Shown here: positions 2,378-46,145 of the stretch, one piece after another
Numbering within the stretch: position 1 is the stretch's first letter
Layout of the letters: each line of letters opens with the position of its first letter
Origin: Candidatus Yanofskybacteria bacterium
GTDB lineage: Bacteria > Patescibacteriota > Minisyncoccia > 2-02-FULL-40-12 > GWA2-44-9
DNA: 64,000 nt
NCBI GenBank assembly: GCA_020852375.1
Contig: JADZAY010000009.1
Location: 12,690-76,689 of the forward strand
Reading direction: 5' to 3'
Translations under genes and position numbers: made by a program
The notes under the pieces: generated by a model
Seen by the model: the letters and a program-made list of their open reading frames with translations, nothing else
What the model was told of the DNA's origin: nothing
Databases searched by the model: none

Positions 2378-2383
2378 ATTCGC

Positions 2384-3022: not shown

Positions 3023-3024
3023 CA

Positions 3025-3192: not shown

Positions 3193-3210
3193 GTCAGATA
3201 AGGAGGTTCC

Positions 3211-3416: not shown

Positions 3417-3425
3417 TATTCACTA

Positions 3426-4154
3426 TTAGTAGTAGATCTCCTTGCGAGGAGGCGATGCTTTGATGATATCGAACGCCTCCTGCGCAGTGTCGACGAGATG
3501 GTAAAGTTGCATATCTTCTTTGTCGATCGCCCGGTACCGCTCGTACACCATGTCGTTGATGTAGGAAAGCAGGGGAGTCCAGAACTCTTTGCCGATCAGG
3601 ATGAGCGGCACGGTATCGCGGTCGACTTTCTTGGTCTGAACCAATGTGACCAGCTCGAAGAACTCGTCGAGCGTTCCGAATCCGCCGGGGAAGAACACAT
3701 ACGCCTGCGCAGTGTAGAAGAGCATGACCTTCCGGACAAAGAAATAATAGAAGGGCTGCTTCTTGGTAAGATACGGGTTCTCGCGCTGCTCGAACGGGAG
3801 CTTGATGTTGATGCCGATGCTCTCCCCACCGGCCTCGAACGCGCCGCGGTTACCACCCTCCATGATGCCCGGCCCGCCGCCGGTCACAACACCGATCTTC
3901 GCTTTCGCGAGCAAGACGCCCAGCTCCCGCGCGACTTGATACCACTTATTCGTCTCCTCGAATCGAGCGGAGCCCAGAATGGAAACGGTGTTCTTGTAAT
4001 CGGTGACGAACTGCCATCCGTCGACGAACTCCGCCATGATGCGAAAGACGCGCCAGTGGAAGCTGGAACGAAAGTCGAGCGGCATGTCCTGCGCCTGCTC
4101 CCATGGCAGCTTCGACGCCGGAACATTGAGCGAGCCTTTTGGATCGTCTCCCAT
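3426..4154 (-). CDS. LOG family protein (cytokinin riboside 5'-monophosphate phosphoribohydrolase / lysine decarboxylase-like)
   Basis: Motifs GVVTGGGPGIMEGGNRGA and PGGFGTLDEFFE. Start at internal Met (MGDDPKG), because the upstream extension lacks homology. Confidence 0.85.
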   Translation of the reverse strand: MGDDPKGSLNVPASKLPWEQAQDMPLDFRSSFHWRVFRIMAEFVDGWQFVTDYKNTVSILGSARFEETNKWYQVARELGVLLAKAKIGVVTGGGPGIMEGGNRGAFEAGGESIGINIKLPFEQRENPYLTKKQPFYYFFVRKVMLFYTAQAYVFFPGGFGTLDEFFELVTLVQTKKVDRDTVPLILIGKEFWTPLLSYINDMVYERYRAIDKEDMQLYHLVDTAQEAFDIIKASPPRKEIYY

Positions 4155-5383: not shown

Positions 5384-5557
5384 GCTCTGTGGACCTACGG
5401 GGAGTCGGCCTCGCCTCTCGGCGCGCCGCCGCGCACCTCGGGCTGGCCACCGCCTCACGGTGCCGCCGACTGGCGGCACATCGCTCCGGCGTTCGTCTCC
5501 CCGTATATATTCGCTGTAGCAATACGGACAACCCTTGAGGGTTGTCCGTATTGCTCT
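5384..5557 (-). repeat. tRNA-3'-linked structured repeat (24-bp copy of tRNA-Ala 3' end + core + hairpin)
   Basis: GCTCTGTGGACCTACGGGGAGTCG at 5384-5407 duplicates 5553-5576. Minus-strand core ACGGGGAGACGAACGCCGGAGCGATGTGCCGCC..GAGGCGGTGGCCAGCCCGAGGTGCGCGGCGGCGCGCCGAGAGGCGAGGCC. Hairpin 5519-5554. Confidence 0.6.
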
Positions 5558-5839: not shown

Positions 5840-7273
5840 ATGGAGATCCATCCGAAGGTACGAGAGGTGCTCACAACTCTTGAGGAGCACAGCCATCGCG
5901 CGTATGCGGTGGGCGGTTGCGTGCGCGACATCATGATGGGGCGCACGCCGACCGACTGGGATATCACGACCAGCGCCACACCCGAACAGATCCAAGAGCT
6001 CTTCCCGGACAACTTCTACGACAACGCGTTCGGAACGGTCACCGTCAAAACCCGCGATGAGGATCCGCTCGTTCGCACGATCCAGATCACCCCATTCCGC
6101 ATCGAGGGGAAGTATAGCGATCAGCGCCACCCTGATGAGATCCGCTTCGCAAAAACGATCGAGGAAGACCTGTCGCGCCGCGACTTCACCGTGAACGCGA
6201 TGGCGCTGTCAGCAGACGGCACGCTTGTCGATCCGTATGACGGCCGCGCCGATCTTGCCGCCAAGGTCATCCGCGCGGTAGGGGATGCCGACGCTCGTAT
6301 CACCGAGGACGCACTCCGCATGATGCGCGCGGTACGCTTTGCAGCAACACTCGACTTCAGCATCCACGAAGCAACCCTCAAGGCCCTGACCCGTCACGCC
6401 GCGCTTCTGGAGCGCATCTCGGCGGAGCGGATACGCGATGAGCTCACGAAGATCATCAATTCGGCGCGGGCGATGGAGGGTATCCAACTCCTCGACGACA
6501 CCGGCCTTTTACGATTCATTATCCCCGAACTCCGCGAAGGGGTCGGCGTCGAGCAGAATCTCCACCACATCTACACTGTGTGGGAGCACAACCTGCGCAC
6601 CATGCACTATGCCGCCCAGAAGGGATACTCGTTCCCGGTCCGTATGGCGTGCCTCTTGCACGATGTCGGGAAGCCACGCACCAAGCGCGGACAAGGGCGC
6701 CACTGCACATTCTATGCCCACGATGCCGTGGGGGCGACCATGGCGAAAAAGATCATGGAACGTCTGCGCTACCCCGGGGAAGTCGTCGACGCCGTCGTAC
6801 GCCTGGTGCGCTACCACATGTTCTACTACAGCGTAGGGGAGGTTACCGAATCGTCCGTCCGCCGCCTTATCGCGAATGTCGGGCTCGAACACATCGACGA
6901 TCTCCTCCGCCTCCGCGAGGGCGACCGCATCGGCTCTGGGACTCCGAAGGCTGTGCCATACAAGCTTCGCCACCTAAAATACATGATCGACAAGGTCAGC
7001 CATGATCCGATCTCGGTAAAGATGCTCAAAGTGAACGGCGAGGACATTATGCAATCGCTGGGCATCCCTCCCGGTCCGAAGATTGGTCTCATCCTCAACA
7101 CGCTCCTGGCAGAGGCGCTCGATGATCCGAACATCAACACGCGCGAGCTCCTGCTCAAGCGCGCCGAGGGACTGAACACCTCCTCCGCGGCCGACCTCAA
7201 GAGCTCCCTCGAGCGGATCGAGCGGGCCCGCGACGCCGAAGAGAAGGAGCGTATGAAGAAGTACTACGTGTAG
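5840..7273 (+). CDS. cca: CCA-adding enzyme (tRNA nucleotidyltransferase, HD domain)
   Basis: GGCVRD..TPTDWDITT polymerase-beta head plus HD motif LLHDVGK; 477 aa. Most tRNAs in the window lack encoded CCA. Confidence 0.9.
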   Translation: MEIHPKVREVLTTLEEHSHRAYAVGGCVRDIMMGRTPTDWDITTSATPEQIQELFPDNFYDNAFGTVTVKTRDEDPLVRTIQITPFRIEGKYSDQRHPDEIRFAKTIEEDLSRRDFTVNAMALSADGTLVDPYDGRADLAAKVIRAVGDADARITEDALRMMRAVRFAATLDFSIHEATLKALTRHAALLERISAERIRDELTKIINSARAMEGIQLLDDTGLLRFIIPELREGVGVEQNLHHIYTVWEHNLRTMHYAAQKGYSFPVRMACLLHDVGKPRTKRGQGRHCTFYAHDAVGATMAKKIMERLRYPGEVVDAVVRLVRYHMFYYSVGEVTESSVRRLIANVGLEHIDDLLRLREGDRIGSGTPKAVPYKLRHLKYMIDKVSHDPISVKMLKVNGEDIMQSLGIPPGPKIGLILNTLLAEALDDPNINTRELLLKRAEGLNTSSAADLKSSLERIERARDAEEKERMKKYYV

Positions 7274-8080: not shown

Positions 8081-8574
8081 ATCTGCATTAATTCTCGCAA
8101 CTTCTGCATACCTCTCGTAATGCGTACGGAAATGACGTTCTCGCTTTCTCCGATGATCTCCGCGATCTCCCGTGGCATCAGATCGTTCACATATCGAAGG
8201 GCAACCGCTTCTCGGTATGGCTCCTCGATACGAGCAATACAGCGAATGGCCCTGTTCGCCTCCGCGGACAGAAGGGGATCAAGGAGCGAATCGTCCCGCA
8301 CATCGAATCCAATCTCCCGGAGCGCTTCGAGCGAATCGGCGCCAGGCTTCCGCGACAGGTCGATACAGGCGTTGCGGGCTGTTCGATACAAAAATGGCTT
8401 CATATCCCGCACCGTCGTACCGCTCAGAAGCGCGCGCCAGGTCCGGGTAAACGCCTCCTGGGTCATATCAAGCGCTCGGTCGCGGTCGCCCGTATGGGCA
8501 TAGCAAAACCGGAAGATCGCATCTCCAAGCTCCCGATATGCCTCTGTCAGCTGCCGTTCTGGCGAGCGCACCAT
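8077..8574 (-). CDS. RNA polymerase sigma-70 family ECF sigma factor
   Basis: Region 2 (YRELGDAIFRFCYAHTGDRDRALDMTQEAF) and region 4 (VALRYVNDLMPREIAEIIGESENVISVRITRGMQKL). Start may be Met 8613 or 8574. Confidence 0.8.
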   Translation of the reverse strand: MVRSPERQLTEAYRELGDAIFRFCYAHTGDRDRALDMTQEAFTRTWRALLSGTTVRDMKPFLYRTARNACIDLSRKPGADSLEALREIGFDVRDDSLLDPLLSAEANRAIRCIARIEEPYREAVALRYVNDLMPREIAEIIGESENVISVRITRGMQKLRELMQI

Positions 8575-9498: not shown

Positions 9499-11481
9499 AT
9501 GAATCCCATCCTCGACGGCCTCAATGAAAAGCAGGTCGAAGCCGTCACCACCACCGAAGGGCCCGTGCTGGTCATCTCGGGACCCGGGTCCGGGAAAACG
9601 CGCGCGCTCACGCACCGCATCGCGTACCTCATCGCGTCCGGCGTCCGCCCCGAGCATATCCTCGCCGTCACCTTCACCAACAAGGCGGCAGGGGAGATCA
9701 AAGAGCGGGTGACCTCGCTCCTCGGGCACCGTACCTCGCCGGCGGCGCGCCATCCCATTCCGACCATCGGCACGTTTCACTCAATCGGACTCCGCATACT
9801 TCGCCGACACGCGGAACGCATCGGATACGGTACGAACTTCACGATCCTCGACAGCGGAGATCAGCAGGCGCTCATTCGGCGCATCAGCGCCGATCTTGAG
9901 CTCGACTCGAAACGATACAGTCCGGGATCACTGCTCGGCAAGATCCAGAAACTCAAAACGGAACTCGTCGGACACCATCAGTACACCGGCACCGGACACA
10001 CGGAAAAGATCCTCGAGCGCGTGTACCGAGCGTACCAGGGTAGATTGGAATCGATGAACGCCGTCGACTTTGGAGACCTCATCTTCCTGACCGTCCGACT
10101 TCTCCGCGAACACCCCGATATTCTCGCGCACTATCAGGGCTTGTGGCGCTACCTCCTGGTAGACGAGTATCAGGACACCAGCCACGATCAGTACACGCTC
10201 ATCAATCTTCTTGCGGCAGGGCACGGTAACATCTTCTGCATCGGGGACGACGCGCAGTCGATCTACCTCTTTCGCCAAGCAGACATTCGGAACATCCTGA
10301 ACTTCCAGCGTGATTGGCCGAACGGAAAAGTCATCCTTCTTGAACAAAACTACCGCTCAACGAAAACCATCCTCGCGGCGGCACAGGCAGTCATCTCGAA
10401 TAACGCATCACAGATCCCGAAGGAGCTGTGGACCAACAATGCAGCGGGGGAGCAGATCACGGTTACCGAAACGGTCAGCGAGCGCCATGAGGCGCAGCAC
10501 CTTATTGAAACCCTCCGGACGCTCCAGCGCCGCCGATACACGCTGGCCGACTGCGCCGTTCTGTATCGGACCCATGCGCAGAGCCGCGCGCTCGAAGAGC
10601 AGCTCGTCCGCGCCGGCATCCCGTACCGCATCGTTGGTGGTATCCGGTTCTACGAACGAAGAGAGGTGAAGGATATTCTCGCGTATGCGCGCCTCCTCGC
10701 AAATCCGAACGACACGGTGAGCTTCGAGCGCATCGCCAATGTTCCCGCGCGCGGCATCGGGACGACGACCATCGACCGCCTCCTCGCCACTGACGCTCCG
10801 GATCGCATCTCGGCCGTCGGCATCCTCGCGCAAGAATATCCACCGACCGGAAGGGCGGGGAAGTCGCTCGATTCGCTTCATTCGCTTCTCGTGCGTCTCC
10901 AGCGCATTGCGCAAGAAAAGAAGCCGAGCGAAGTCATTCGTGCCATCCTCAAGCACACCGCATACGAAGACTATCTCCGCACTCAAAAGGGCCAGGATGC
11001 CGAGAGCGCCGAGGAGCGCGTTGAGAACGTACGCGAACTGCTGACCGTCGCGGCAAAGTACGACTCCGAAGGCTCTGCCGGTATGCGAACATTCCTCGAA
11101 GAGGTCGCGCTCCTTCAGGACACCGATCAGCTCGCCGCCGAAGACGCCGCCGTCACGCTCATGACCATGCACGCCGCAAAAGGCCTCGAGTTTCCAGTCG
11201 TATATGTTTGCGGCATGGAGGAGGGCCTCTTCCCGCACAGTCGGACCGTGTGGGCCCCGCATGAGCTCGAAGAGGAGCGCCGTCTCTGCTATGTTGCCAT
11301 TACTCGGGCTAAGGAACGCCTGTTCATCAGTCTTGCGAAGTGGCGCAACATTTTCGGTTCTCGGCAAGCGAACATTCCTTCCCGTTTTCTTTCGGAGATT
11401 CCCGCGCACCTGCTCTCGTGGCAGCGGATCGAACCCGACGACCGCTCTGCCGACGACGAGCGCATTGACTATGACTTCTAA
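9499..11481 (+). CDS. ATP-dependent DNA helicase, UvrD/PcrA/Rep family
   Basis: Walker A GPGSGKTRALTHR, motifs DEYQDTS, VGDDAQSIY, TMHAAKGLEFPVV. The ORF-track N-terminal extension through tRNA-Ala(CGC) is rejected; start at ATG 9499. Confidence 0.9.
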   Translation: MNPILDGLNEKQVEAVTTTEGPVLVISGPGSGKTRALTHRIAYLIASGVRPEHILAVTFTNKAAGEIKERVTSLLGHRTSPAARHPIPTIGTFHSIGLRILRRHAERIGYGTNFTILDSGDQQALIRRISADLELDSKRYSPGSLLGKIQKLKTELVGHHQYTGTGHTEKILERVYRAYQGRLESMNAVDFGDLIFLTVRLLREHPDILAHYQGLWRYLLVDEYQDTSHDQYTLINLLAAGHGNIFCIGDDAQSIYLFRQADIRNILNFQRDWPNGKVILLEQNYRSTKTILAAAQAVISNNASQIPKELWTNNAAGEQITVTETVSERHEAQHLIETLRTLQRRRYTLADCAVLYRTHAQSRALEEQLVRAGIPYRIVGGIRFYERREVKDILAYARLLANPNDTVSFERIANVPARGIGTTTIDRLLATDAPDRISAVGILAQEYPPTGRAGKSLDSLHSLLVRLQRIAQEKKPSEVIRAILKHTAYEDYLRTQKGQDAESAEERVENVRELLTVAAKYDSEGSAGMRTFLEEVALLQDTDQLAAEDAAVTLMTMHAAKGLEFPVVYVCGMEEGLFPHSRTVWAPHELEEERRLCYVAITRAKERLFISLAKWRNIFGSRQANIPSRFLSEIPAHLLSWQRIEPDDRSADDERIDYDF

Positions 11482-23992: not shown

Positions 23993-24006
23993 GCGAGGAG
24001 GGGTGA

Positions 24007-24237
24007 TTAGCGGAGTGTGGCGTGACGTATTGCGAACGGGTTGCACTTCAAAAAGCGAAGCGTTGCGACAGCAGCTCCTCGCAGAACCCCGCGTTCACTG
24101 ATCGCCCGGATCGCATAGTCAGAGCACGTAGGCCATGAACGACATCCAGAGACGGGGAGCGCGAACGGTGAGGCGCTCAGTAGGTGTCTCCCGAACCGCT
24201 GATACATTCGGATACCCTGAATGATGAGCCGCTTCAT
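24007..24237 (-). CDS. yidD: membrane protein insertion efficiency factor YidD
   Basis: YQRFGRHLLSASPFALPVSGCRSWPTCSDYAIRAI is typical of YidD. Confidence 0.85.
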   Translation of the reverse strand: MKRLIIQGIRMYQRFGRHLLSASPFALPVSGCRSWPTCSDYAIRAISERGVLRGAAVATLRFLKCNPFAIRHATLR

Positions 24238-24587
24238 CGGACTAGGATAGCAGATTTTTGGAGGAGCGACACCACCTCAGCATGAAGAGTTGCCGCGTTG
24301 GGGAGGGGGAGTTTTTTCACTGAGAACACCGCGATGGAGCCGTCCGGGATATCGCGCCGACTCACCACCCGACGGACCACCTCCGAGACGCTTCTACGAA
24401 CCGCGTTTCGAAGCACCGCTTTCGGGGCGAGTTTTACCGATACAGTCACTCCGAAGCGCGTGTTCTGTGATTCGCGTATGCGTCGTACTCTCAGCGCGAG
24501 ATGCTCCGATGAGATTGGGCGCACTTCTTTGAATACTGTTGCGTACTGCTTTGCTCCGGTGAGTCGATGTTTTGAGGGTATCGCCAT
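24234..24587 (-). CDS. rnpA: ribonuclease P protein component
   Basis: 117 aa, basic; RLTGAKQYATVF...RNAVRR motif. Between rpmH and yidD. Confidence 0.85.
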   Translation of the reverse strand: MAIPSKHRLTGAKQYATVFKEVRPISSEHLALRVRRIRESQNTRFGVTVSVKLAPKAVLRNAVRRSVSEVVRRVVSRRDIPDGSIAVFSVKKLPLPNAATLHAEVVSLLQKSAILVR

Positions 24588-24600
24588 TACACGCTACAAA

Positions 24601-24631
24601 TATCCGCCCCGACGGATCGCCGGGGCGGATA
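24601..24631. terminator. hairpin terminator after rpmH
   Basis: TATCCGCCCCG-acggatcgc-CGGGGCGGATA. Confidence 0.5.
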
Positions 24632-24634
24632 TGT

Positions 24635-24772
24635 TTAGACAGTCAGCTTTGCCCGTCCCTTGCTCCTCCGACGAGCGAGGACCTTTCTCCCGGATTTTGT
24701 CTTCGTTCGAGAGAGGAATCCGTGCTTCCGACTTCGTTTTGCTTTCTTGGGACGATAGCGAGTTATTTTCAT
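24635..24772 (-). CDS. rpmH: 50S ribosomal protein L34
   Basis: Hand translation gives [45 protein letters not shown]. Not in the ORF track because it is shorter than 60 aa. Confidence 0.9.
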
Positions 24773-24936
24773 AATAGGGGTTCGCCGGTGGCGCGCACAC
24801 GACGTTCATTCATACGGAGTTTACTATGTTTGATTGTGCAAGTCAATATTTACCCGTTTTTTCCACTTGTTATAAACACTCTATCAACGTTTTTGCGATT
24901 TCTCCCTTCTTGAGCGAGGTGCGCTGAACGGTATAC

Positions 24937-26334
24937 TTGCGGCACATGTCATCCATTCCTCCGGAAGATATTTGGAAAGCAGTGTTGGGAGAAATGGAGC
25001 TTTCTCTTTCTCGCGCGCATTTTACGACGTGGTTCAAGAACACGTCGATCGTCTCTCGTGATTCAAATTCGGTAACGGTGAGTGTTCCGAATGGTTTCGT
25101 AAAGGAATGGCTTGAGAATAAGTTCAACCGCCAAATCCTCGCTTCCGTCCGAAAGCTTTGCAATGAGATTCGAGAGGTCCGCTATATCGTCGGACAACCG
25201 AAACCAGAACCGGCACGCCAGGACATCTCTAAAATCATTATTGAGAAAGAATTCCAGGAACAGTCGGCTGTCGATCAAAGCCAAGAAATCGATAAGGTTA
25301 CCCATCTGAACAAGAAGTACTCCTTCGATTCATTCATCGTCGGCTCATCGAATGAGCTTGCCTTTGCGTGTGCCCAGTCGGTTGCCGCGAATCCTGGGAA
25401 AAACTACAACCCGCTCTTTATTTATGGTGGAGTTGGCCTAGGAAAGACGCATTTGATCCAATCCATCGGAAACAAGCTCCTCACCGATGTCCCTGAACGG
25501 AAGGTGTTGTACACATCGGGTGAGAAACTCACATCGATTATTGTGGAAGCGATCCGAAATCGAACTATCGAAGATATCAAATCGGTGTACTCCCGCCTCG
25601 ATCTCCTTGTTATTGATGACATCCAATTCATAGCCGGAAAAGACAAGACCCAAGAAGTCGTGTTCACGATCTTCAACGAGCTTCACAACCACAACAAACA
25701 GGTTGTGTGCACATCGGATCGGCCCCCGAAAGCGATCCCTGCCATCGAAGAGCGTCTTCAGTCTCGCCTCGAAGGGGGAATGTTGGTTGATATCAATATG
25801 CCCGATTTTGAAACGCGATTGGCGATTTTGAAACAAAAATCAGTTGAGCGGTCCTCACCGCTTACCGATGAAGTCCTTTCATATATAGCAACCCATATCC
25901 AAAAAAATGTTCGCGAACTCGAGGGGGCTCTTAATCGAGTGATCGCCCTGGCGCAGATCTACAACCGTCCGCCAGACCTTAAAGAGGTGAAAAACATCCT
26001 CACCGCATACTTGTCGGTTCCGTACCGAAAAACATCCCCGCAGGCTATTTTGAAAACGGTCGCCGATTTCTACAATATTTCTTCAGCCGACCTTACGAAG
26101 CGGAGTCGAAAGAAAGAGGTTGTAAAGCCGCGGCAAGTCGCCATGTTCCTTTTGCGAGAAGAAATAAAGCTTTCTTTCCCGGAAATCGGACAGAAGCTTG
26201 GTGGCCGCGACCACTCGACAGTCATCCACGCATGCGAAAAGATAAAGAAAGAAGAGGGAATCGACGAGCCACTCAAGAACGAGCTCACTATGATCCGCCA
26301 GCGTATTTACGACTCTTTCGAGCACTCGGGATAG
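24937..26334 (+). CDS. dnaA: chromosomal replication initiator protein DnaA
   Basis: AAA+ motifs [16 protein letters not shown] and [10 protein letters not shown]-terminal DNA-binding domain. Confidence 0.95.
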
Positions 26335-26564
26335 GTTGTTGAAAACCCTGTGGATGACCTTTGTGTGCGCTGTGGGTGAAATGTGTGAATTATTCCCGCC
26401 TCCGGAAACGACCCACAAACACACCCGGGAAATAAGGTTCCCGTCCACATTCGGAATCCTTGGTTTCTCCGCGAAAGGAAAGAGAAATAGCGAGCTCCAT
26501 CCCCATATCAACACCCATAATAAGATATAGTAATATAAGTTAGATTATAGAGCAGAAAAACACT
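26335..26564. promoter_or_regulatory. candidate oriC: DnaA-box-like motifs plus AT-rich unwinding region in the dnaA-dnaN spacer
   Basis: TGTGGATGA 26349-26357, TGTGGGTGA 26371-26379, TGTGTGAAT 26382-26390, GTCCACATT about 26443-26451. The run ATAATAAGATATAGTAATATAAGTTAGATTATAG 26517-26550 is nearly pure AT. Confidence 0.5.
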
Positions 26565-27659
26565 ATGAAGATCACGGTCCATAAAGAACGCTTCGCACGG
26601 GCCCTCGGGTTTGTTGAGCGGATAACCTCTCGAAATTCTTCTCTTCCGATCCTTAATAATGTTCTCTTAAAAACAGAACATGGGAGATTAAAGGTTTCCG
26701 CAACAAATCTCGAGATCGGTGTAACATCGGTTATCGGGGCGAGCGTTGAGCGTGAGGGTCAGATCGCTGTCCCCGGGAAGACGATCGCCGATTTTGTGCG
26801 AAGTGTGCCCGGAGAGACTCTTGATATCAATGTCGATCAGCATACGCTTTCTGCAAGCTCAGGGTCTTACCAGACATCGATTCTTTGTTTTGACCCGGCA
26901 GAGTATCCAATCATCCCAAAGATAGATGGAGGGGAGCAGTTTGTTGTTTCAGTCGAGACTCTCCAGCGGCTTATCGATACCGTGAGCGACTCCATCGCAA
27001 CATCGGATTCACGCCCCGAACTCTCTGGTGCGCTCCTTCGCTTTGATACCGGTATCGTTTCGATGGCGGCGACCGACATCTTTCGTCTTGCAGAACAACG
27101 AGAGGATGGTGAATTTTCGTCCTCTGGTGCCGCTATTGTGCCCCGTGGGACGATATACGAGCTTAGAAGGGTTCTCGGTGGTCTTTCGGGAGATATTACC
27201 GTTCACCTAACAGATAACCAGATCGCATTCGTCCACGAAGACTGCGAGATCGTTTCTCGTCTTATCGATGGGAAGTATCCTGATTATAAAAAAATAATCC
27301 CGGAACGAGCAAACGCTCGCGTGCTTGTCCGGAGAGAAGAAATAGAGAATGCGGTAAAAACAGCAGCTCTCTTTTCCTCAAGCATCTCGGACATCAAGCT
27401 CGAGTGCTCCGGTGCGGAGCTGAAGATCACCGGGAAGAACTCGAATAAAGGGGAAGCGTATGCAGGAGTAGAGGCGAATTTAAAGGGTGATCCGTTCGAT
27501 GTTTCGATGAACTATCATTACCTTCTTGATGGTTTGCGGGCTGTGCCAACGGAAAAAATCATCCTAGAGTTTACCGGCAAAGGAAGCCCATTTGTCCTTC
27601 GGCCGCACAGTGACGATCCTCGGACGGTGTATTTGATCATGCCTCTCCGGAGTTCCTAA
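26565..27659 (+). CDS. dnaN: DNA polymerase III subunit beta (sliding clamp)
   Basis: 364 aa; MKITVHKERFARALGFVERI...NLEIGVTS is typical of DnaN. Confidence 0.95.
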   Translation: MKITVHKERFARALGFVERITSRNSSLPILNNVLLKTEHGRLKVSATNLEIGVTSVIGASVEREGQIAVPGKTIADFVRSVPGETLDINVDQHTLSASSGSYQTSILCFDPAEYPIIPKIDGGEQFVVSVETLQRLIDTVSDSIATSDSRPELSGALLRFDTGIVSMAATDIFRLAEQREDGEFSSSGAAIVPRGTIYELRRVLGGLSGDITVHLTDNQIAFVHEDCEIVSRLIDGKYPDYKKIIPERANARVLVRREEIENAVKTAALFSSSISDIKLECSGAELKITGKNSNKGEAYAGVEANLKGDPFDVSMNYHYLLDGLRAVPTEKIILEFTGKGSPFVLRPHSDDPRTVYLIMPLRSS

Positions 27660-27660
27660 G

Positions 27661-27936
27661 ATGCTGAAACCGATCCAAGCGGCCCTTGCTCAGCGTCACG
27701 CAACACTCCAACAGAACGAGCACACCACCGCAAAGGCGCAGCGGTGTGTTCGCGAGTTTGTGCAGGAACGCTACCCGAAAGCGGTTGTTGAGGTCCTCTA
27801 CCAAGAGCGGCAACGGTGTGTCGTTGTGAAAGCGCGAGGAAAGGCTTTGGCAGGAGAGTTACTCCTCCAAGCGATTGATCTCCGTGCGCACCTTCGCACT
27901 CACGGGGTGCGGGTCGAGCGGGTTATTATTCAGTAG
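27661..27936 (+). CDS. DUF721/DciA-like protein
   Basis: 91 aa immediately after dnaN. C-terminal pattern VVVKARGKALAGELLLQAIDLRAHLRTHGVRVERVII resembles the DUF721 consensus. Confidence 0.45.
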   Translation: MLKPIQAALAQRHATLQQNEHTTAKAQRCVREFVQERYPKAVVEVLYQERQRCVVVKARGKALAGELLLQAIDLRAHLRTHGVRVERVIIQ

Positions 27937-30074
27937 CCGAGCCCAGCCTGAGCGCTCACAGCCGCTTCCCAGTTTTTGAACTGGGGGTCTTGGTCTGGAT
28001 ATGCAGGGAATGGGCCGGTTGGATCATTCCGATCCACGTACCACAGGATCGAGTGTGGTTGCGGGTATTCTTGCGAGACATACAACCCGTTCAGCATGAT
28101 CTTGTTCGTTACAATCGGATCCGGCTTAACGAACGATTCGGCGGGGGTGCTGTTCAACGCCGAGACCATAAAAGCATTCCAAAGCGGCCCGGCGGCACTA
28201 ATACCAGCTCCTGCGGCGGTCATTGATTGATTACGATTGTTTCCGATCCATACCACTGTCGCGATTGATGGGGTGTAGCCAACAACCCACGCATCCCGAT
28301 TTTCTTGCGTCGTACCGGTTTTAGCGGCGACATCGCGACCCGGCACAACAAGCGCGTTGTTAGCTCCAAACACCGCTGAGCGCGCCCCATTGTCACTCAA
28401 CACATCGTTTACAAGACGGGCTGTTTGCGCATCGAGCACACGCTCTTGCGTAGCTCTTCGTTCTTCGAGAACCGTTCCATCATTCGCTTCGATGCGCTGG
28501 ATCATACTCCACGGTGTGCGGATGCCTTCATTCGCAAACACTCCGTATGCCGAGACAAGATCGACGGGGCGAACTTCAGCGCCGCCAAGGACCAACGAAA
28601 GACCGAAGCGAGAGCGGTCGGAAAGGGTTGTGATGCCCATGCGTGTCGCAAGGTCGATCGTATCATCGACGCCAGCAAGGTAGAGCGTTTTTACCGATGT
28701 GGTGTTGAGCGAGCGAGCGAGCGATTGGCGGAGAGTGACCGGGCCAGAATATTTTCCGTTATAGTTTTGTGGATGATAACAGTCTTGTCCGGTCGAGTCT
28801 TTCTTTGCTGATGCGTCAGGTGGGCAGAGCGGGTTGAACTCTGTTTTCACATCCCATAATACCGTGGTGTCGGGGAATCCCTTCGCGAATGCCGCAGCAT
28901 ACGCGAAGGGCTTGAATGCTGACCCCGGCTGTCGCTGTGCGGTGGCAACGTTGTAGTTTCCTTCGTTTTCGGTATCAAAGTAGTTTGCGGAACCGACCAA
29001 CGCGAGCACACCACCCGTCTTGGGGTCGAGCGCAACGAGCGCTGCGTTCGAAGCCTTGTACTTTTCCTTGTTGATCGCGGCGTATTTTGCGACAAGCTCT
29101 TCCGCCTTCTTTTGCAGTTCTGCATCGAGCGTTGTGATGATCTTAAATCCGCCCGAAGAAACAATGTCGCTTCCGTATTTCTGGGTGACATACTCTCGCG
29201 CCATAACAACAAAATGAGGCGCAACGAGTGCGCTCGATTTTGGTTTGAAGGTGAGTGTCTCCGCGAGCGCCGAATTACGCGCTTGTTCGCTAATGTATCC
29301 GAGTTGGAACATTCGGCCTATGACATAATCCTTTCGAGCCATCAACTCGTCTCTGTGGCTGCCGTACGGAGAAAGGTATGATGGACGCTGAACAAGCGAT
29401 GCGAGGAGGGCTGCCTGTGCGATGGTGAGGTCGGCCGCCGGTGTGCCGAAGTATGTTTGGCTCGCCGCCTCGATCCCGTAGGCGTTCGAACCATACGGAA
29501 CTTGGTTGAGATACATTTCGAATATCTGGTCCTTGGTGAAGCGGCGCTCGACTTCGATGGCTAAGATAAGCTCCTCAACCTTTCGTGTGATCGTCTTTTC
29601 TCGGCCAACAAGAGCGTTTCCAACGAGTTGCTGGGTGAGTGTGGATCCGCCGCCCGATCCGTATCCGCGCTCAACATTGCGCAGCAGTGAACGCGCGATG
29701 CCTTTTATATCGAAACCTTTGTGTTCATAGAACCCGCTGTCTTCGACGGCGAGGGTCGCGTGTTTGATGTTTTCTCCCATCCGATCCCATGGGACAACGG
29801 TGCGCTTTTCCTCGTCGAAAATGTCGTATAAAACGACCGTACCAGTTCGGTCATAGATCTTTGTCGATTCTTTGACTTGGCGGGATACGATAGACTCGGG
29901 ATCCGGGGTTCTGCTTTTCGCATACAGAACGAACAACGAGACTCCAATAAGGCCGAGTGTGATACACCAAGCAATAATGGTAAGAAGGCCGTGTGCGCGG
30001 GCGGCGAGCGTCGTCGGAGAGTGGAACGTGTTTCGGTTGAGGGGAACGCGCCGAAAGAAAGGATGAAGTTTCAC
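27930..30074 (-). CDS. penicillin-binding protein 1A (bifunctional glycosyltransferase/transpeptidase)
   Basis: GT51 motifs EDSGFYEHKGFD and RGYGSGGGSTLTQQL; transpeptidase SAFKPF..SLN. Start set at GTG 30074 just before the TM helix, because there is no ATG upstream of the TM; the start is uncertain. Confidence 0.8.
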   Translation of the reverse strand: MKLHPFFRRVPLNRNTFHSPTTLAARAHGLLTIIAWCITLGLIGVSLFVLYAKSRTPDPESIVSRQVKESTKIYDRTGTVVLYDIFDEEKRTVVPWDRMGENIKHATLAVEDSGFYEHKGFDIKGIARSLLRNVERGYGSGGGSTLTQQLVGNALVGREKTITRKVEELILAIEVERRFTKDQIFEMYLNQVPYGSNAYGIEAASQTYFGTPAADLTIAQAALLASLVQRPSYLSPYGSHRDELMARKDYVIGRMFQLGYISEQARNSALAETLTFKPKSSALVAPHFVVMAREYVTQKYGSDIVSSGGFKIITTLDAELQKKAEELVAKYAAINKEKYKASNAALVALDPKTGGVLALVGSANYFDTENEGNYNVATAQRQPGSAFKPFAYAAAFAKGFPDTTVLWDVKTEFNPLCPPDASAKKDSTGQDCYHPQNYNGKYSGPVTLRQSLARSLNTTSVKTLYLAGVDDTIDLATRMGITTLSDRSRFGLSLVLGGAEVRPVDLVSAYGVFANEGIRTPWSMIQRIEANDGTVLEERRATQERVLDAQTARLVNDVLSDNGARSAVFGANNALVVPGRDVAAKTGTTQENRDAWVVGYTPSIATVVWIGNNRNQSMTAAGAGISAAGPLWNAFMVSALNSTPAESFVKPDPIVTNKIMLNGLYVSQEYPQPHSILWYVDRNDPTGPFPAYPDQDPQFKNWEAAVSAQAGLGY

Positions 30075-40424: not shown

Positions 40425-40555
40425 GGCCCGCTGTAGGGTTTGAAGCCCGGAGCGATGTGGCGGCAGCGGCCGACACCGCGAGGGCCGGAGCCCGGAGGCG
40501 GACGGCTCAGACCGGGGGCCGTTCGACCGGAGGGTGAATCCTACAGGGCGGACCA
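40425..40555 (+). repeat. tRNA-3'-linked structured repeat (core + 19-bp copy of tRNA-Lys 3' end)
   Basis: CTGTAGGGTTTGAAGCCCGGAGCGATGTGGCGGCAGC..GAGGGCCGGAGCCCGGAGG..GACCGGAGGGT, then GAATCCTACAGGGCGGACC 40536-40554, which equals 40357-40375. Followed by hairpin 40560-40590. Confidence 0.6.
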
Positions 40556-42322: not shown

Positions 42323-42405
42323 CACTTGGCCACTCCTTATTCTGCATGTATGAAGGAAGTGGCTGGCCAAGTGTCCTGAGCGCATAGGCGCGAAGGACTA
42401 CAGTG
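42323..42405 (+). promoter_or_regulatory. conserved hairpin + -10 module (copy 1 of 3) upstream of tRNA-Val(GAC)
   Basis: CACTTGGCCACTCCTTATTCTGCATGTATGAAGGAAGTGGCTGGCCAAGTG hairpin, then TCCTGAGCGCATAGG..., then TACAGT 11 nt before the tRNA. Confidence 0.4.
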
Positions 42406-42478
42406 GTTGCGGTATGCGCGCTTAGCTCAGTTGGTAGAGCATCTCATTGACGTTGAGAGGGTCGTAGGTTCGAGTCCT
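42406..42478 (+). tRNA. tRNA-Val (anticodon GAC)
   Basis: Acceptor GCGCGCT/AGCGCGC. Anticodon loop ttGACgt. Confidence 0.85.
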
Positions 42479-42496
42479 ACAGCGCGCACAAATTTG

Positions 42497-42871
42497 TTAG
42501 TTTTTTAGTCTCTTCCCCCGATAGTGAGCCGCTTCGGCGAGGAATCGTTCGTCATCTTTTGTGCTATGCCTGACGGCGTGGCAATTCGCACAGAGAAGAG
42601 TGCATTTCAGGATCTCTGCCCGGATGCTCTCCCAGCTCTTGTTCGCGACATTACCGAGAGTGAAGTCTTTCTTTTGTGGATCAAGATGATGGAATTGAAG
42701 GGCGGCCTGATGGCCCCTCCAGCCACAATCCACGCACTTTCCGCCGAGGATGCGTATGGCAGCCGCCTTGGTTCGATAGCGCCGGATCTTGGTGTTGCAG
42801 GCCCCGCATCTGGCGCGCATTTTCCCCTGGTAATCGTTGTACTCTTTGCCGCATAGTTTACAGATCGTCAT
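42497..42871 (-). CDS. HNH endonuclease (free-standing, zinc-ribbon N-terminus)
   Basis: CKLCGKEY..CGAC N-terminus. HNH core CVDCGWRGHQAALQFHHLDP...LLCANCHAVRH. Paralogous in architecture to the HNH gene at 2384-2755. Confidence 0.75.
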   Translation of the reverse strand: MTICKLCGKEYNDYQGKMRARCGACNTKIRRYRTKAAAIRILGGKCVDCGWRGHQAALQFHHLDPQKKDFTLGNVANKSWESIRAEILKCTLLCANCHAVRHSTKDDERFLAEAAHYRGKRLKN

Positions 42872-42945
42872 GCCTTGAGTATAGCAAAATGCGCTCTACC
42901 AAGAGAGATTGCAGGGGGACGGATTTTGTGATACCGTATACACAT

Positions 42946-43223
42946 GCCGCGGTAGCTCAGTGGTAGAGCGCAGCCCTAAATCTTTGGGGCTTTCCGCAGG
43001 AATGCGGATTGAGAAATCGGGTGAATTCGGGGGAACTCCGGAACGGTCTGGACAATCCCGAGCCGAGCTCCGTGGGGTATCCAAAACGGAGAAGGTGTAG
43101 AGACTAGCGGGTGAGCCCAACAATACTCCCGCACAAGCGCCCGACCTCCAGAACGGAGGATGATATAGTCCAATTCAGCTTCGGAAGAGGCTGGCGTCGG
43201 GGGTTCAATTCCCTCCCGCGGCA
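42946..43223 (+). tRNA. intron-containing tRNA, most likely tRNA-Phe (anticodon GAA); exons 42946-42977 and 43184-43223
   Basis: 5' exon GCCGCGGTAGCTCAGTGGTAGAGCGCAGCCCT and 3' exon GAAGAGGCTGGCGTCGGGGGTTCAATTCCCTCCCGCGGCA together give a 72-nt cloverleaf with anticodon loop ctGAAga. Identity rests on the splice-junction assignment, including an unusual G37. Confidence 0.7.
42978..43183 (+). ncRNA. group I self-splicing intron (Azoarcus-type) in tRNA anticodon loop
   Basis: 206 nt. Internal guide GGGGCT (42986-42991) pairs with exon end AGCCCU with a U.G pair at the splice site. P2 hairpin CCGCAGGAATGCGG. Core GAAGGTGTAGAGACTAGCGGGTGAGCCC closely resembles the Azoarcus tRNA-Ile intron P7 region, with ATATAGTCC as the P7 3' strand. 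The intron ends in G. Confidence 0.75.
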
Positions 43224-43224
43224 C

Positions 43225-43267: not shown

Positions 43268-43411
43268 TCCTGCTCGCGGCCGGGAATTGAAGGGCATCGA
43301 GCCGAGCGAACTGCTTCGCTCGGTGAGAGCCCGGGCTCCGGGGGAGCATCGAAGCGTCCGCCGAAGGCGGCTGCGAAGATGCGGAGGAGGAGAATTCCCT
43401 CCCGCGGCACA
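43268..43411 (+). repeat. tRNA-3'-linked structured repeat, unit 1 of tandem pair (divergent core + 19-bp copy of tRNA-Phe 3' end)
   Basis: AATTCCCTCCCGCGGCACA at 43393-43411 equals tRNA 43207-43225. 5' flank GCGGCCGGGAATTGAAGGGC is roughly complementary to the T-arm. Followed by hairpin 43414-43449. Confidence 0.55.
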
Positions 43412-43452: not shown

Positions 43453-43588
43453 ACGTATCGTGGCGGGAGGGAATTGAACGCCGGAGCGATGCGGTATCAG
43501 CTGATATCGCCGCGAGGCGGTGGCCAGCCCGAGCGTCGCGACGGCGCCGCGAGAGGCGAGGCCAATGACTGACCCCTCCCGCGGCACC
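43453..43588 (+). repeat. tRNA-3'-linked structured repeat, unit 2 of tandem pair (canonical core)
   Basis: CGTGGCGGGAGGGAATTGAACGCCGGAGCGATGCGGTATCAGCTGATATCGCCGCGAGGCGGTGGCCAGCCCGAGCGTCGCGACGGCGCCGCGAGAGGCGAGGCC, then CCCTCCCGCGGCAC (a partial copy of the tRNA 3' end). Followed by hairpin 43595-43623. Confidence 0.6.
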
Positions 43589-44063: not shown

Positions 44064-44765
44064 TTAAACGCCGGAAGATTCTAGCATATCCAAGGTTTTT
44101 TGCAAGTCCTGGGGGAGGTCGGCTTCCAGGGCAAGGGCTTTGCCGTCCGGGCTTGTGAGGCGGAGCTTCCAGGCGTGCAGGAAGAGGCGCTCAAGGCCCG
44201 GCGGGAGAGGCTTCTTTGCCGCGTAGAGCTTGTCGCCGGCGAGGGGGCAACCGATATGCTTTAGATGTACCCGGATCTGGTGGGTGCGGCCCGTTTTTGG
44301 CATGGCGCGCACGAGTGTGTAGTCGGGGTACGAGCGGAGGACCTCATAGTCGGTGACGGCATCCCGGACAACGAGCTCGCGCTTGCCTTTGATCTGGGTG
44401 GTCTGCTTGGTGCCCAGTTTTCCCAGCGGGGCGTCGATGGTTCCCGATGCCTGCGCGGGGCGTCCGTGCACAAGGGCGAGGTATTCTTTTTGGGTCTGCC
44501 GGGTCTGGAAGAGGTTCTTGAGGTACTCGAATGTCGGCTGGTCCTTCGCGATGACCATGATGCCCGACGTCTCCTTATCCAAGCGATGCACGATGCCGGG
44601 GCGGAGCGGGGATTCGCCAACGCCGGCGAGGTACGGTCGTTCGGCGACGAGCATATCCGCCACCGTGATCTGGGGGTCGGTGGGGCTTACTTTGTGCACC
44701 GCAATGCCATACGGTTTGTTGATGGCAAAGAGATGTGCGTCTTCATAGATGACGGGGAGGGTCAT
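44064..44765 (-). CDS. RluA family pseudouridine synthase
   Basis: Catalytic motif HRLDKETSGIMVIAK. Lacks an N-terminal S4 domain. Confidence 0.85.
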   Translation of the reverse strand: MTLPVIYEDAHLFAINKPYGIAVHKVSPTDPQITVADMLVAERPYLAGVGESPLRPGIVHRLDKETSGIMVIAKDQPTFEYLKNLFQTRQTQKEYLALVHGRPAQASGTIDAPLGKLGTKQTTQIKGKRELVVRDAVTDYEVLRSYPDYTLVRAMPKTGRTHQIRVHLKHIGCPLAGDKLYAAKKPLPPGLERLFLHAWKLRLTSPDGKALALEADLPQDLQKTLDMLESSGV

Positions 44766-45190
44766 GCGTTCAATGCTTTCTTGAACATTGAGAGAGCGAG
44801 GTCTGCGCTGATAAGGTTGACGGGGATTTCATTGAGTCCGAACCACTGCCACTTCTCAAACTTCTCGGGTTCCATGAGCTTTGGTTCTTGGTCGGTTGCT
44901 ACCTCGAACACGAATACATGGTCGCGTCCGGTCTCATCAATGTATGCGCCCGGATACTCACCGAGCTTCCGGACAATGCGAGCGTCCGTGACCCCGATTT
45001 CCTCCTCGATTTCTCGGATGACGGTGGACTCGGGAGCTTCACCGGCGTCGCATCTGCCACCGGGAGCGACCCATAGTGAGGTATCGTGGTAGTGGCGAAG
45101 ACCGAGTAGAATCTTCCCATTTCGAATGATGACCGATGATGTGCAGTTGTGGTTCTTTGGGGAATGAGATTCGTAGAATTTCGGCGACAT
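44762..45190 (-). CDS. NUDIX hydrolase
   Basis: Nudix box GGRCDAGEAPESTVIREIEEEIG. Confidence 0.8.
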   Translation of the reverse strand: MSPKFYESHSPKNHNCTSSVIIRNGKILLGLRHYHDTSLWVAPGGRCDAGEAPESTVIREIEEEIGVTDARIVRKLGEYPGAYIDETGRDHVFVFEVATDQEPKLMEPEKFEKWQWFGLNEIPVNLISADLALSMFKKALNA

Positions 45191-45221: not shown

Positions 45222-45330
45222 TGGCGGAATTATTGTAACTCTCCGCGCCTGCCTGCCGGTAGGCAGGCCCATGCGCTCGGGGCACTTGGCCAGCCACCCC
45301 CTTCATACATGCAGGATAAGGAATGGCTAA
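45222..45330 (-). promoter_or_regulatory. conserved hairpin + TACAAT module (copy 2 of 3) upstream of the NUDIX gene
   Basis: Minus-strand reading: CACTTAGCCATTCCTTATCCTGCATGTATGAAGGGGGTGGCTGGCCAAGTG hairpin, then CCCCGAGCGCATGGG.., GCCTGCC-hairpin, then GAGAGT-TACAAT-AATTCC. ATG 40 nt downstream. Confidence 0.4.
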
Positions 45331-45332
45331 GT

Positions 45333-45455
45333 GTGGGCGGTAGAGGACTCGGCTTTGTCTCTCGCGTCGCCGTTGCGACGCTCGGATTAGCCACCGCCTC
45401 GCGGCGCCACCTACTGGCGGCGCATCGCTCCGGCGTTCGAGCCTCTACCATTCGC
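45333..45455 (-). repeat. tRNA-3'-linked structured repeat (core + 19-bp copy of tRNA-Val(TAC) 3' end)
   Basis: Minus-strand reading: GGTAGAGGCTCGAACGCCGGAGCGATGCGCCGCCAGTAGGTGGCGCCGCGAGGCGGTGGCTAATCCGAGCGTCGCAACGGCGACGCGAGAGACAAAGCCGAGTCCTCTACCGCCCACAC. The 19-bp copy at 45333-45351 equals 45502-45520. Hairpin 45457-45500 separates it from the tRNA. Confidence 0.6.
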
Positions 45456-45576: not shown

Positions 45577-45660
45577 GAATTATTGTAGCCCCGCGAACCC
45601 ATGTTCTCGGGACACTTCGCCAGCCAACTCCTTCATACATACAGAATAAGGAGTGGCGAA
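45577..45660 (-). promoter_or_regulatory. conserved hairpin + TACAAT module (copy 3 of 3) upstream of tRNA-Val(TAC)
   Basis: Minus-strand reading: CACTTCGCCACTCCTTATTCTGTATGTATGAAGGAGTTGGCTGGCGAAGTG hairpin, TCCCGAGAACATGGG.., then GGGGC-TACAAT-AATTCC directly abutting the tRNA 5' end. Confidence 0.45.
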
Positions 45661-45790
45661 GTGTGGGGGGAGCCTGGATTCACCCTCCGGTCAGGCCTGC
45701 GCCGTCGCTTGGCCTGCCTTCGGGCTCCGGCCCTCACGGTCGCGCCTGCTGGCGCGACATCGCTCCGGGCTTCGAATCCTATCACTCCAA
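45661..45790 (-). repeat. tRNA-3'-linked structured repeat (Lys-type core + diverged copy of tRNA-Ile 3' end)
   Basis: Minus-strand reading: GATAGGATTCGAAGCCCGGAGCGATGTCGCGCCAGCAGGCGCGACCGTGAGGGCCGGAGCCCGAAGG..GACCGGAGGGTGAATCCAGGCTCCCCCCACAC. Hairpin 45791-45836 separates it from tRNA-Ile. Confidence 0.55.
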
Positions 45791-45838
45791 CTACTACTTG
45801 AAACCGACCCGCCGCAGGGGCGGCTCGATTTCAAGATG

Positions 45839-45912
45839 TGGGGGAGCTAGGATTCGAACCTAGGACCACCAAGGTATAAGCTTGGCGCTCTAACCAGCTG
45901 AGCTACTCCCCC
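45839..45912 (-). tRNA. tRNA-Ile (anticodon TAT)
   Basis: Reverse complement folds as GGGGGAG-UA-GCUC..CCAAG-CUUAUAC-CUUGG..CUCCCCC-A. The loop CUUAUAC gives anticodon UAU, which is unusual. Confidence 0.7.
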
Positions 45913-46145
45913 TGAATCAATTGTAGTTTGTACGCTTTTCCCTGACGTTTGATCTGCTGCTCTCGCTTGGTTGCCGAACCGCGATCCGGATGTCGCTCAG
46001 TATACAGCAGGGTGAACGGGCCGCGCCCTCGGGTGTACTTTGCCCCCGTACCCGCTCGATGCTGTGCGATGCGCGCGGCGATGTCGGTCGTGATCCCGGT
46101 GTACAGCGTACCATCACCGCACTTCAGGATGTAGACGACGTACAT
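45903..46145 (-). CDS. GIY-YIG nuclease family protein (free-standing, 80 aa)
   Basis: MYVVYILKCGDGTLYTGITTDIAARIAQH...E (GIY-YIG core with Arg and Glu). The last 10 nt overlap the 5' end of tRNA-Ile. Confidence 0.7.
   Translation of the reverse strand: MYVVYILKCGDGTLYTGITTDIAARIAQHRAGTGAKYTRGRGPFTLLYTERHPDRGSATKREQQIKRQGKAYKLQLIQGE

Follow-up and report, generated by a model that had tools for sequence, protein, structure and literature searches.

What ties a small nuclease gene to the transfer RNA (tRNA) gene beside it? The question is raised by a 64,000-nucleotide (nt) stretch of a Candidatus Yanofskybacteria contig (JADZAY010000009.1, positions 12,690 to 76,689; the whole stretch is called the window), in which two HNH endonuclease genes, here HNH-1 and HNH-2, and an 80-amino-acid (aa) GIY-YIG gene lie against tRNA genes. 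A first-pass annotation, made from the letters alone, had suggested that all three may be trans-acting homing-type nucleases aimed at tRNA genes, free-standing nucleases of this type being a known route by which introns and elements move. Our analysis indicates that HNH-1 and HNH-2 are probably tRNA-gene-linked, free-standing homing endonuclease cassettes, each lineage specialised on one tRNA gene. Together with a group I intron of tRNA-Phe, HNH-1 is best read as forming a "collaborative homing" arrangement. The GIY-YIG gene and the repeat elements do not share in this pattern. The features of the HNH-1 locus are as follows.

42416-42489, plus strand: tRNA-Val(GAC), convergent with HNH-1, 7 nt between its 3′ end and the HNH-1 stop codon.
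42490-42941, no strand: 452-nt segment, the HNH-1 cassette, read as an insertion by comparison with a related locus (L211) where the site is empty.
42497-42871, minus strand: HNH-1, a free-standing zinc (Zn)-ribbon plus HNH endonuclease gene, 124 aa (PHROG 2255 and homologue alignment).
42878-42902, minus strand: promoter-like motif of HNH-1, extended −10, TTGGTAGAGC-N7-TGCTATACT, directly upstream of the ATG; predicted promoter.
42946-42977, plus strand: tRNA-Phe(GAA) 5′ exon, 32 nt, ending in U33 (ARAGORN with introns allowed); 100% identical to the intronless L211 gene.
42978-43183, plus strand: group I intron without an open reading frame (ORF), 206 nt, inserted between U33 and G34 of the anticodon loop (Rfam RF00028).
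43184-43224, plus strand: tRNA-Phe(GAA) 3′ exon (ARAGORN with introns allowed).

The HNH-1 ORF is intact and encodes the motifs CxxC...CxxC, HH, N and CANCH...H, laid out as an N-terminal CxxC...CxxC ribbon followed by an HNH core framed by two more CxxC pairs. The protein contains the histidine, asparagine, metal-binding His/Asn and CxxC pairs of the HNH superfamily. It matched PHROG 2255, "HNH endonuclease", at E 5.8e-29, while the match to Pfam HNH was weak (18.2 bits, under the cut-off of 21.4). Alignment of 52 homologues revealed 42 invariant columns, among them C4, C7, C22, C25, C46, C49, H61, H62, C94, N96, C97, H98 and H102; N74 is invariant or nearly so. The AlphaFold2 (AF2) model has a predicted local distance difference test (pLDDT) score of 85.7, and Foldseek returned weak matches to the HNH nucleases Cap5, the Gme HNH nickase 4h9d, PacI and the Cas9 HNH domain (best E 0.16). 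Profile search and Foldseek thus gave generic, weak HNH matches and no specific solved relative in the PDB. Length is constant at ~124 aa in more than 100 homologue clusters, and the proportion of nonsynonymous differences (pN) between HNH-1 genes is 0.07-0.25 where synonymous differences (pS) are saturated. This pattern of purifying selection indicates that selection has long kept the HNH-1 protein functional.

We compared the sequences upstream of 13 HNH-1 genes, with those of L004 and L037 taken from an offset start. Most of these upstream sequences contain the TGCTATACT core or a near match to it, the full motif preceding most genes is TTGrTAGArC-N7-TGCTATACT, and the remaining spacer is unconserved. 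We infer that this motif is the cassette's own promoter. An 11-mer within the upstream region, TGGTAGAGCGC, is the reverse complement of the tRNA-Phe D-arm and might be a tRNA remnant or a half-site; because it forms part of the motif conserved upstream of most orthologues, it is more simply read as promoter or operator.

With default settings, ARAGORN detected 15 tRNA genes in the window and missed the intron-containing tRNA-Phe. When introns were allowed, it recovered the whole gene (42946-43224, with a 206-nt intron after nt 32). As this mode gives many chimeric false calls, we used mainly calls that coincide with Rfam, a rule applied to group I introns that were not also read directly in the sequence. 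Here, RF00028 matched at 42968-43193 with 72.2 bits (gathering score 50) over the full model. The intron has U at position −1, a terminal G and no ORF, and is apparently splicing-competent. The HNH-1 ATG lies 74 nt from the tRNA-Phe 5′ end on the opposite strand, which places the cassette ~106 nt from the intron insertion site (a 74-nt spacer plus the 32-nt 5′ exon).

The pairing of HNH-1 with tRNA-Phe extends well beyond the window. We examined Patescibacteria loci from species-representative genomes (L001-L008) and metagenomes (L036-L039) together with the window, and in 14/14 the 5′ end of tRNA-Phe(GAA) lies 74-99 nt from the HNH-1 relative in divergent orientation. In L001-L008, HNH-1 is 62-76% identical at the protein level, and tRNA-Phe lies 84-99 nt upstream and divergent in all eight. 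The other neighbouring genes vary among the 14 loci. Homologous introns of 202-224 nt, with 57-85% mutual identity, occupy the same site in six of the 14 (the window, L001-L004 and L036).

A related Yanofskybacteria locus, L211, provided an empty site. This locus was found through its GIY-YIG protein (89% identical to that of the window), is syntenic with window positions 38.8-52 kb, and encodes FtsH, RluA and L19 proteins that are 87%, 86% and 89% identical to those of the window. In L211, 26 nt separate tRNA-Val(gac) from tRNA-Phe, the HNH-1 segment is precisely missing, as is the intron, and the tRNA-Phe exons are 100% identical to those of the window. HNH-1 therefore displays the presence and absence between relatives that is expected of a free-standing homing gene. 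A more distant locus, L001 (FtsH 73%), holds gene and intron alike, which leaves two histories for the pair: a single loss in the L211 lineage or two gains. Under either history, the comparison indicates that the cassette is dispensable and has clean boundaries.

HNH-1 relatives with 40-55% identity from other phyla (Acidobacteriota, Bacteroidota, Chloroflexota and Actinomycetota) also sit beside tRNA genes. Ten of 11 genomic relatives have a tRNA within 100 nt, compared to 0.9 expected from random placement in the same loci. Those of Bacteroidota and Chloroflexota lie 1-11 nt from tRNA-Arg(TCT), the stop codon of the Acidobacteriota gene overlaps tRNA-Cys, the Ktedonobacteraceae genes adjoin tRNA-Thr(TGT), and the Solirubrobacterales genes adjoin tRNA-Asn or tRNA-Arg. 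Many metagenomic and IMG/VR relatives are held in dense, phage-type tRNA arrays. In a neighbour-joining tree, which is crude and indicative of clade structure only, clades track the cognate tRNA (Arg-TCT, Asn-GTT and Thr-TGT), and the sister group of the Patescibacteria/tRNA-Phe clade is formed by genes from arrays, among them L040, which ends 1 nt before a tRNA-Phe. The tRNA-Arg(TCT) pairing seen in two phyla and the occurrence of relatives in phages suggest an older spread. Copies that look decayed were also recovered: in the Bacteroidota gene L012 (5983-6399) the CANCH motif is broken by a frameshift, and L014 and L016 (around 6001-6200), both from Solirubrobacterales, are truncated and lack the N-terminal part. 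Such degenerate copies are consistent with the life cycle of a selfish homing gene. Pseudomonas-type matches (L019-L035) were excluded, as they belong to a different family of ~285 aa with no tRNA link.

We searched these loci with a hidden Markov model (HMM) of the six tRNA-Phe introns and found homologous introns beside HNH relatives that had previously seemed to lack a tRNA. Rfam identified ten complete group I introns among the flagged loci. In seven loci, the HNH ORF lies inside the intron, which is 495-560 nt long in tRNA-Asn(GTT) and ~555-561 nt in tRNA-Thr(TGT). The intron-split genes that contain an HNH ORF are listed by locus.

L090, 379-949: tRNA-Asn(GTT).
L097, 4929-5503: tRNA-Asn(GTT).
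L088, 751-1333: tRNA-Asn(GTT).
L074, 67-643: tRNA-Asn(GTT).
L114, 4889-5523: tRNA-Asn(GTT).
L083, 1464-2098: tRNA-Thr(TGT).
L115, 4851-5478: tRNA-Thr(TGT).

The HNH-encoding introns of L090 and L097 were read directly in the sequence, and the L090 enzyme is 44% identical to HNH-1 (E 2e-23). In five further loci (L061, L073, L048, L082 and L100), a free-standing HNH gene lies beside a tRNA-Asn or tRNA-Thr gene with an ORF-less intron. The intron calls in L073 and L074 rest on ARAGORN, with an nhmmer match for L074 only. We found no description of HNH-encoding tRNA introns in the literature searched. As read from these loci, the HNH-1 family spans four layouts: encoded in an intron, beside an ORF-less intron, beside an intronless tRNA gene and borne in an array. 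By analogy, this series is the one predicted by collaborative homing, which has been described for phage genes as a way in which mobile introns arise (PMC3984707, PMC2790892).

HNH-2, which lies between two tRNA-Ser genes as HNH-1 lies between tRNA-Val and tRNA-Phe, behaves in a similar way.

2290-2377, minus strand: tRNA-Ser(UGA), on the same strand as HNH-2 and 6 nt downstream of it; the tRNA with which the HNH-2 family is consistently paired.
2384-2866, minus strand: HNH-2, a free-standing multi-Zn-ribbon plus HNH endonuclease gene, 160 aa, GTG start (Pfam, PHROG and homologue alignment).
2936-3023, plus strand: tRNA-Ser(CGA), divergent, 69 nt from the HNH-2 start.

The first-pass annotation had both HNH genes abutting tRNA genes and sharing a Zn-ribbon plus HNH architecture, and both points held up (the latter by motifs, PHROG and Pfam HNH_3). 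Its extent for HNH-2, 2384-2755, began at the wrong start and cut off the N-terminal zinc ribbons; alignment to 8 homologues, with 60+ invariant columns, fixes the start at GTG 2866. HNH-2 has the HNH superfamily motifs and matched Pfam HNH_3 above the cut-off (E 2.3e-7, 30.8 bits) and phrog_1271 (E 6.7e-17). Its best PADLOC match was "HEase" (homing endonuclease; E 1.3e-8), the only other being the HNH domain of ZorE. An extended −10 motif, TGGTATAGT, lies just upstream at 2872-2880. HNH-1 and HNH-2 are thus alike as single genes between tRNA genes, outside introns, each with such a motif. In the alignment that the first-pass annotation had called for, the two proteins are 29% identical over 83 residues of the HNH core, and we assign them to different subfamilies with a common architecture.

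Homologues of HNH-2 form more than 1,100 clusters at 90% identity (61-71% identity among the best matches listed) and are known from Parcubacteria to Roizmanbacteria at 58-69% identity. In 6/6 independent contexts, the window and five fetched ones (L196/L197, L205, L208 from Roizmanbacteria, L224 and L225), tRNA-Ser(UGA) directly follows the gene in the same orientation. The annotated stop codon of homologues is often inside the first nucleotides of this tRNA; in the window the gap is 6 nt. Moreover, 61 of 80 IMG/VR relatives lie no more than 100 nt from a tRNA; the closest relatives adjoin tRNA-Ser genes. HNH-2 itself has no exact match in the protein collection (best 71%), while its contig-mates, the GIY-YIG protein and HNH-1, are found there at 100%; the GTG-start gene was probably overlooked in the deposited annotation. 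Window positions 1-4000, which hold HNH-2 and both tRNA-Ser genes, have a G+C content of 50-53%, as do positions 24000-28000, compared to 56-61% elsewhere.

The GIY-YIG gene gave a different picture.

45838-45912, minus strand: tRNA-Ile(UAU), whose nt 8-10 (TAG) are the GIY-YIG stop codon; 10-nt overlap.
45903-46145, minus strand: GIY-YIG gene (UPF0213-type), 80 aa (Pfam GIY-YIG E 6.9e-19), 4 nt after ftsH.

The 10-nt overlap with tRNA-Ile, claimed earlier, is real. The protein is a single GIY-YIG domain (Pfam residues 1-71 of 80 aa) that aligns end to end with PDB 1zg2, "UPF0213 protein BH0048" (E 2.5e-19), and also matches 1ywl (EF2693; E 1.5e-13). It is of the same single-domain size as these stand-alone UPF0213/YhbQ-type proteins, with nothing notable to set it apart save its placement between ftsH and tRNA-Ile, and it lacks the C-terminal DNA-binding region of I-TevI/Seg-type enzymes. 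There was no PHROG or PADLOC match. Homologues fall in 2,115 clusters, including Alphaproteobacteria at 61% identity; we detected no nearby tRNA in four independent contexts of close relatives, and 0/22 viral relatives lie within 100 nt of a tRNA. In the window and L211, the gene follows ftsH by 4 nt and lacks a separate promoter. The copy in L001, 55% identical, instead lies between tRNA-Ile and tRNA-Val and also ends at the TAG of a tRNA. Comparison of these loci points to some local mobility or paralogy and leaves a homing role unsupported. We judge the gene to be an ordinary, widespread UPF0213 protein outside the homing system. The earlier proposal of homing-type nucleases tied to tRNA genes therefore survives for HNH-1 (14/14 at tRNA-Phe, the L211 empty site and the intron-encoded sisters) and HNH-2 (6/6 at tRNA-Ser(UGA)) and fails for the GIY-YIG gene, a bare UPF0213 domain whose relatives are not tRNA-linked.

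ORFs that end exactly at the TAG of tRNA nt 8-10, with a 10-nt overlap, recur in four loci (window 45903-45912, L001 4408-4417, L196 4480-4489 and L009 6273-6282). They encode GIY-YIG proteins (window and L001), one HNH-2 relative and one HNH-1 relative. Since no spacer separates these ORFs from the tRNA 5′ end, they are probably co-transcribed with the tRNA, in which case RNase P cleavage would strip the stop codon from the nuclease mRNA. With tRNA-Ile(UAU), AUA codons would be readable without the lysidine-modified CAU tRNA that usually decodes them; this tRNA is also present (as TAT) in L001 and L211.

The repeat elements were the remaining part of the earlier proposal. Copies occur at the following positions.

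3074-3188, plus strand, window.
5392-5505, minus strand, window.
40432-40546, plus strand, window.
43279-43405, plus strand, window.
43466-43578, plus strand, window.
45336-45450, minus strand, window.
45667-45784, minus strand, window.
8293-8419, minus strand, L211.
10431-10541, minus strand, L211.

Each copy lies ~50 nt past a tRNA gene and its terminator hairpin and resembles a partial copy of the 3′ part of the adjoining tRNA. The order is the T-stem 5′ strand, TTCGAA, a GC-rich, structured T-loop insert of ~95 nt, the T-stem 3′ strand, the acceptor 3′ strand and then a second hairpin. The ends are copy-specific and fit each copy's own tRNA, and the inner hairpins covary, with double changes in 11 of 23 predicted pairs. 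At a relaxed threshold, Rfam gave sub-threshold noise only and no match. As the first-pass annotation stated, the nuclease cassettes do adjoin element copies or the intron-containing tRNA, with copies at tRNA-Ser(cga), tRNA-Phe (two copies) and tRNA-Ile. The inferred association dissolved on wider search: nhmmer detected seven copies of the element in the window, two in L211 and no copy in the ~220 other loci searched, which include all other HNH-1 loci and the HNH-2 loci L196-L210. Because L211 has a copy at tRNA-Phe without HNH-1, the other nuclease loci searched are element-free and the window itself holds mismatches (Ala-ggc, Lys-ctt and Val-tac bear elements without a neighbouring nuclease; Ser-tga and Val-gac adjoin nucleases without an element), a link between element and nuclease is unsupported. 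By their distribution, the elements are lineage-specific and independent of the nucleases.

A second small repeat, the long hairpin CACTTGGCCACTCCTTATTCTGCATGTATGAAGGAAGTGGCTGGCCAAGTG, occurs in the window (42324-42380, ~45267-45337 and ~45600-45670) and in L211 (~6284-6373 and 6456-6560). Copies are located after tRNA-Leu(gag) and after the repeat elements that lie downstream of tRNA-Val(tac) and tRNA-Ile(tat). A NUDIX-like ORF (44762-45190, minus strand) lies between tRNA-Val(tac) and rluA in the window, where L211 has a RibD_C/DHFR-like gene (6573-7088); we read this as a gene replacement beside a tRNA.

How might the HNH cassettes spread? In a homing model, the HNH protein would nick or cut the DNA of the cognate tRNA locus in genomes without the cassette, and recombinational repair from a cassette-bearing copy would then introduce the nuclease gene. 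As tRNA genes hardly vary, the locus could offer ready-made homology and a target in any recipient. At tRNA-Phe, where a group I intron lacking an ORF is present as in a collaborative homing pair, the cassette and the intron could travel together by co-conversion ("collaborative" or trans homing) since they lie so close to one another, and the intron may shield the host's own tRNA-Phe gene. The intact HNH motifs with a probable nuclease fold, the linkage of gene and tRNA, the empty site in a relative, the intron-encoded sisters and purifying selection carry this reading; from them we infer DNA cleavage, target identity, gene conversion and any role in intron movement for HNH-1 and HNH-2. A restriction or otherwise unrelated system, which would have undone the idea, was not indicated for either gene: HNH-1 had no PADLOC match, and the neighbours of both are tRNAs and housekeeping genes. 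We hold more tentatively, as a possibility somewhat short of even, that the HNH family as a whole consists of tDNA-specific homing endonucleases, with one tDNA per clade (Phe, Ser, Asn, Thr, Arg and others) and all stages of the route to mobile introns preserved, which would mobilise tRNA group I introns, immobile on their own, in trans between cellular genomes of the Candidate Phyla Radiation (CPR).

Several observations weigh against the homing model. Seven HNH-1 loci have an intronless tRNA-Phe whose anticodon loop is identical to the intron homing site, and comparison of the anticodon stems of tRNA-Phe genes with the intron, without it and without HNH-1 revealed no consistent difference; immunity through target variation was rejected on the same comparison. 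Since these seven genomes keep the site uninterrupted with no diagnostic difference in the stem, the intron insertion site may not be the target of HNH-1; the intron-encoded sister enzymes point the other way, which makes the indirect evidence on this point mixed. All loci but one were retrieved with the HNH protein as query, which makes the sample blind to how often the intron occurs without HNH. A single loss accounts for the state of L211 no less readily than two gains. HNH-1 is 75% identical in the window and L001, compared to 62-73% for FtsH, RluA and L19, a host-like divergence. No recent horizontal transfer of HNH-1 is visible; as synonymous sites are saturated, neither transfer nor a rate ratio can be read from divergence against housekeeping genes or from the ratio of nonsynonymous to synonymous rates (dN/dS). 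The constancy of placement beside tRNA-Phe across deep divergence matches vertical inheritance, and long-term purifying selection would suit a domesticated host function equally well.

These last points lead to the alternative that the HNH genes derive from homing nucleases and have been retained for a host function, such as protection or maintenance of the tRNA locus, a defence directed at phages with cognate tRNA genes or some other DNA transaction, and stay beside the tRNA through common transcription signals. Selection over the whole protein, constant length, divergence close to that of housekeeping genes, the fixed position and orientation at all 14 HNH-1 loci and the reach of HNH-2 from Parcubacteria to Roizmanbacteria all agree with such a role. 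We nevertheless regard it as unlikely, though worth keeping in view, given that HNH-1 is dispensable in the close relative L211, that sister enzymes are intron-encoded or lie in phage tRNA arrays, that degenerate copies exist and that the tRNA is the sole conserved partner gene; the few hundred to ~thousand 90% clusters recovered, a number limited by the search method, also suggest a patchy distribution. Could the genes instead be passive hitch-hikers, generic selfish or phage-derived genes that gather in tolerant tRNA-flanking spacers with no specificity for tRNA DNA? Patescibacteria genomes are compact and leave few non-coding spacers, the flanks of tRNA genes being among them, integration is classically frequent at tRNA genes, and the GIY-YIG gene is placed in a lineage-specific manner, at different tRNAs in the window and L001. 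Set against this are the single tRNA partner held by each HNH clade despite differing other neighbours, the tRNA-Arg(TCT) pairing common to Bacteroidota and Chloroflexota, and the ~10-fold fewer adjacencies that random placement predicts, so that we find this account quite improbable. We give the least credence, and very little, to the full model in which all three nucleases, including GIY-YIG, mobilise both elements and intron into tRNA genes in trans. It would account for the element copies beside tRNA-Ser(cga), tRNA-Phe and tRNA-Ile, each neighbouring a nuclease gene, and the window and L211 do differ in element content over the same timescale as they differ in the HNH cassette; the confinement of the element to these two loci, its presence at the L211 tRNA-Phe, the mismatched tRNAs in the window (three with an element and no nuclease, two the reverse) and the lack of a DNA-binding domain and of tRNA linkage in the GIY-YIG family all speak against it. 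Homing cassettes, each specialised on one tRNA gene, thus remain our preferred explanation for HNH-1 and HNH-2.

How do these cassettes relate to known systems? HNH genes in tRNA clusters and collaborative homing are already known. Like the collaborative homing pairs of phages, HNH-1 is a free-standing nuclease gene within ~100 nt of a gene that holds a group I intron without an ORF, predicted to self-splice, relatives have or lack nuclease gene and intron together, and related enzymes occur inside introns, as the mobile-intron origin model predicts. Here, however, the host gene is a chromosomal tRNA gene of a CPR genome rather than a phage protein-coding gene, and HNH-1 is also kept beside intronless tRNA-Phe. 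Free-standing homing-type nuclease genes also lie between tRNA genes in T4, where SegB is encoded in a tRNA cluster (PMC2330249), and in mycobacterial and phage tRNA arrays, where HNH genes occur (PMC5966550, PMC6409571). IMG/VR relatives of HNH-1 and HNH-2 sit in such arrays. SegB differs in being a GIY-YIG enzyme, and the arrays are accessory multi-tRNA clusters on phages and plasmids, whereas the partners of HNH-1 and HNH-2 are dispersed chromosomal tRNA genes, presumably the only copies in the cell (the window is part of the genome), with one cognate tRNA per HNH clade. Another comparison is I-Ssp6803I, an endonuclease encoded in the group I intron of a cyanobacterial tRNA-fMet (Bonocora and Shub 2001, as cited in PMC3984707). 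Both it and HNH-1 are tied to a group I intron in the anticodon loop of a bacterial tRNA, and the L090-type sister clade is its direct analogue. I-Ssp6803I, a PD-(D/E)XK enzyme, is encoded inside its intron, in contrast to HNH-1, an HNH enzyme outside the intron. What appears to be new is the specificity of each clade for one tRNA on the chromosomes of CPR bacteria, the pairing of a free-standing HNH gene with an ORF-less tRNA-Phe intron, and the intron-encoded sister enzymes in tRNA-Asn and tRNA-Thr introns.

For annotation, these results mean that ORFs labelled "HNH endonuclease" or "hypothetical" beside tRNA-Phe and tRNA-Ser(UGA) are one recurrent system, and that default tRNA finders miss intron-split tRNA-Phe genes. 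The nucleases are compact (124-160 aa), each is apparently tied to one tRNA gene sequence, and they could be sequence-specific nickases or cutters as well as a marker of gene flow among CPR bacteria. Group I introns occur in many bacterial tRNA species and are frequent in unnamed, CPR-type phyla, as described in a survey that made no link to neighbouring nucleases (bioRxiv 10.1101/2020.01.27.920355). Bacterial tRNA group I introns are mostly ORF-less, and a neighbouring nuclease with intron-encoded sisters would offer a concrete, testable route for their spread, and the family may provide a natural series for the assembly of mobile introns, seen so far in a few phage protein-coding genes only.

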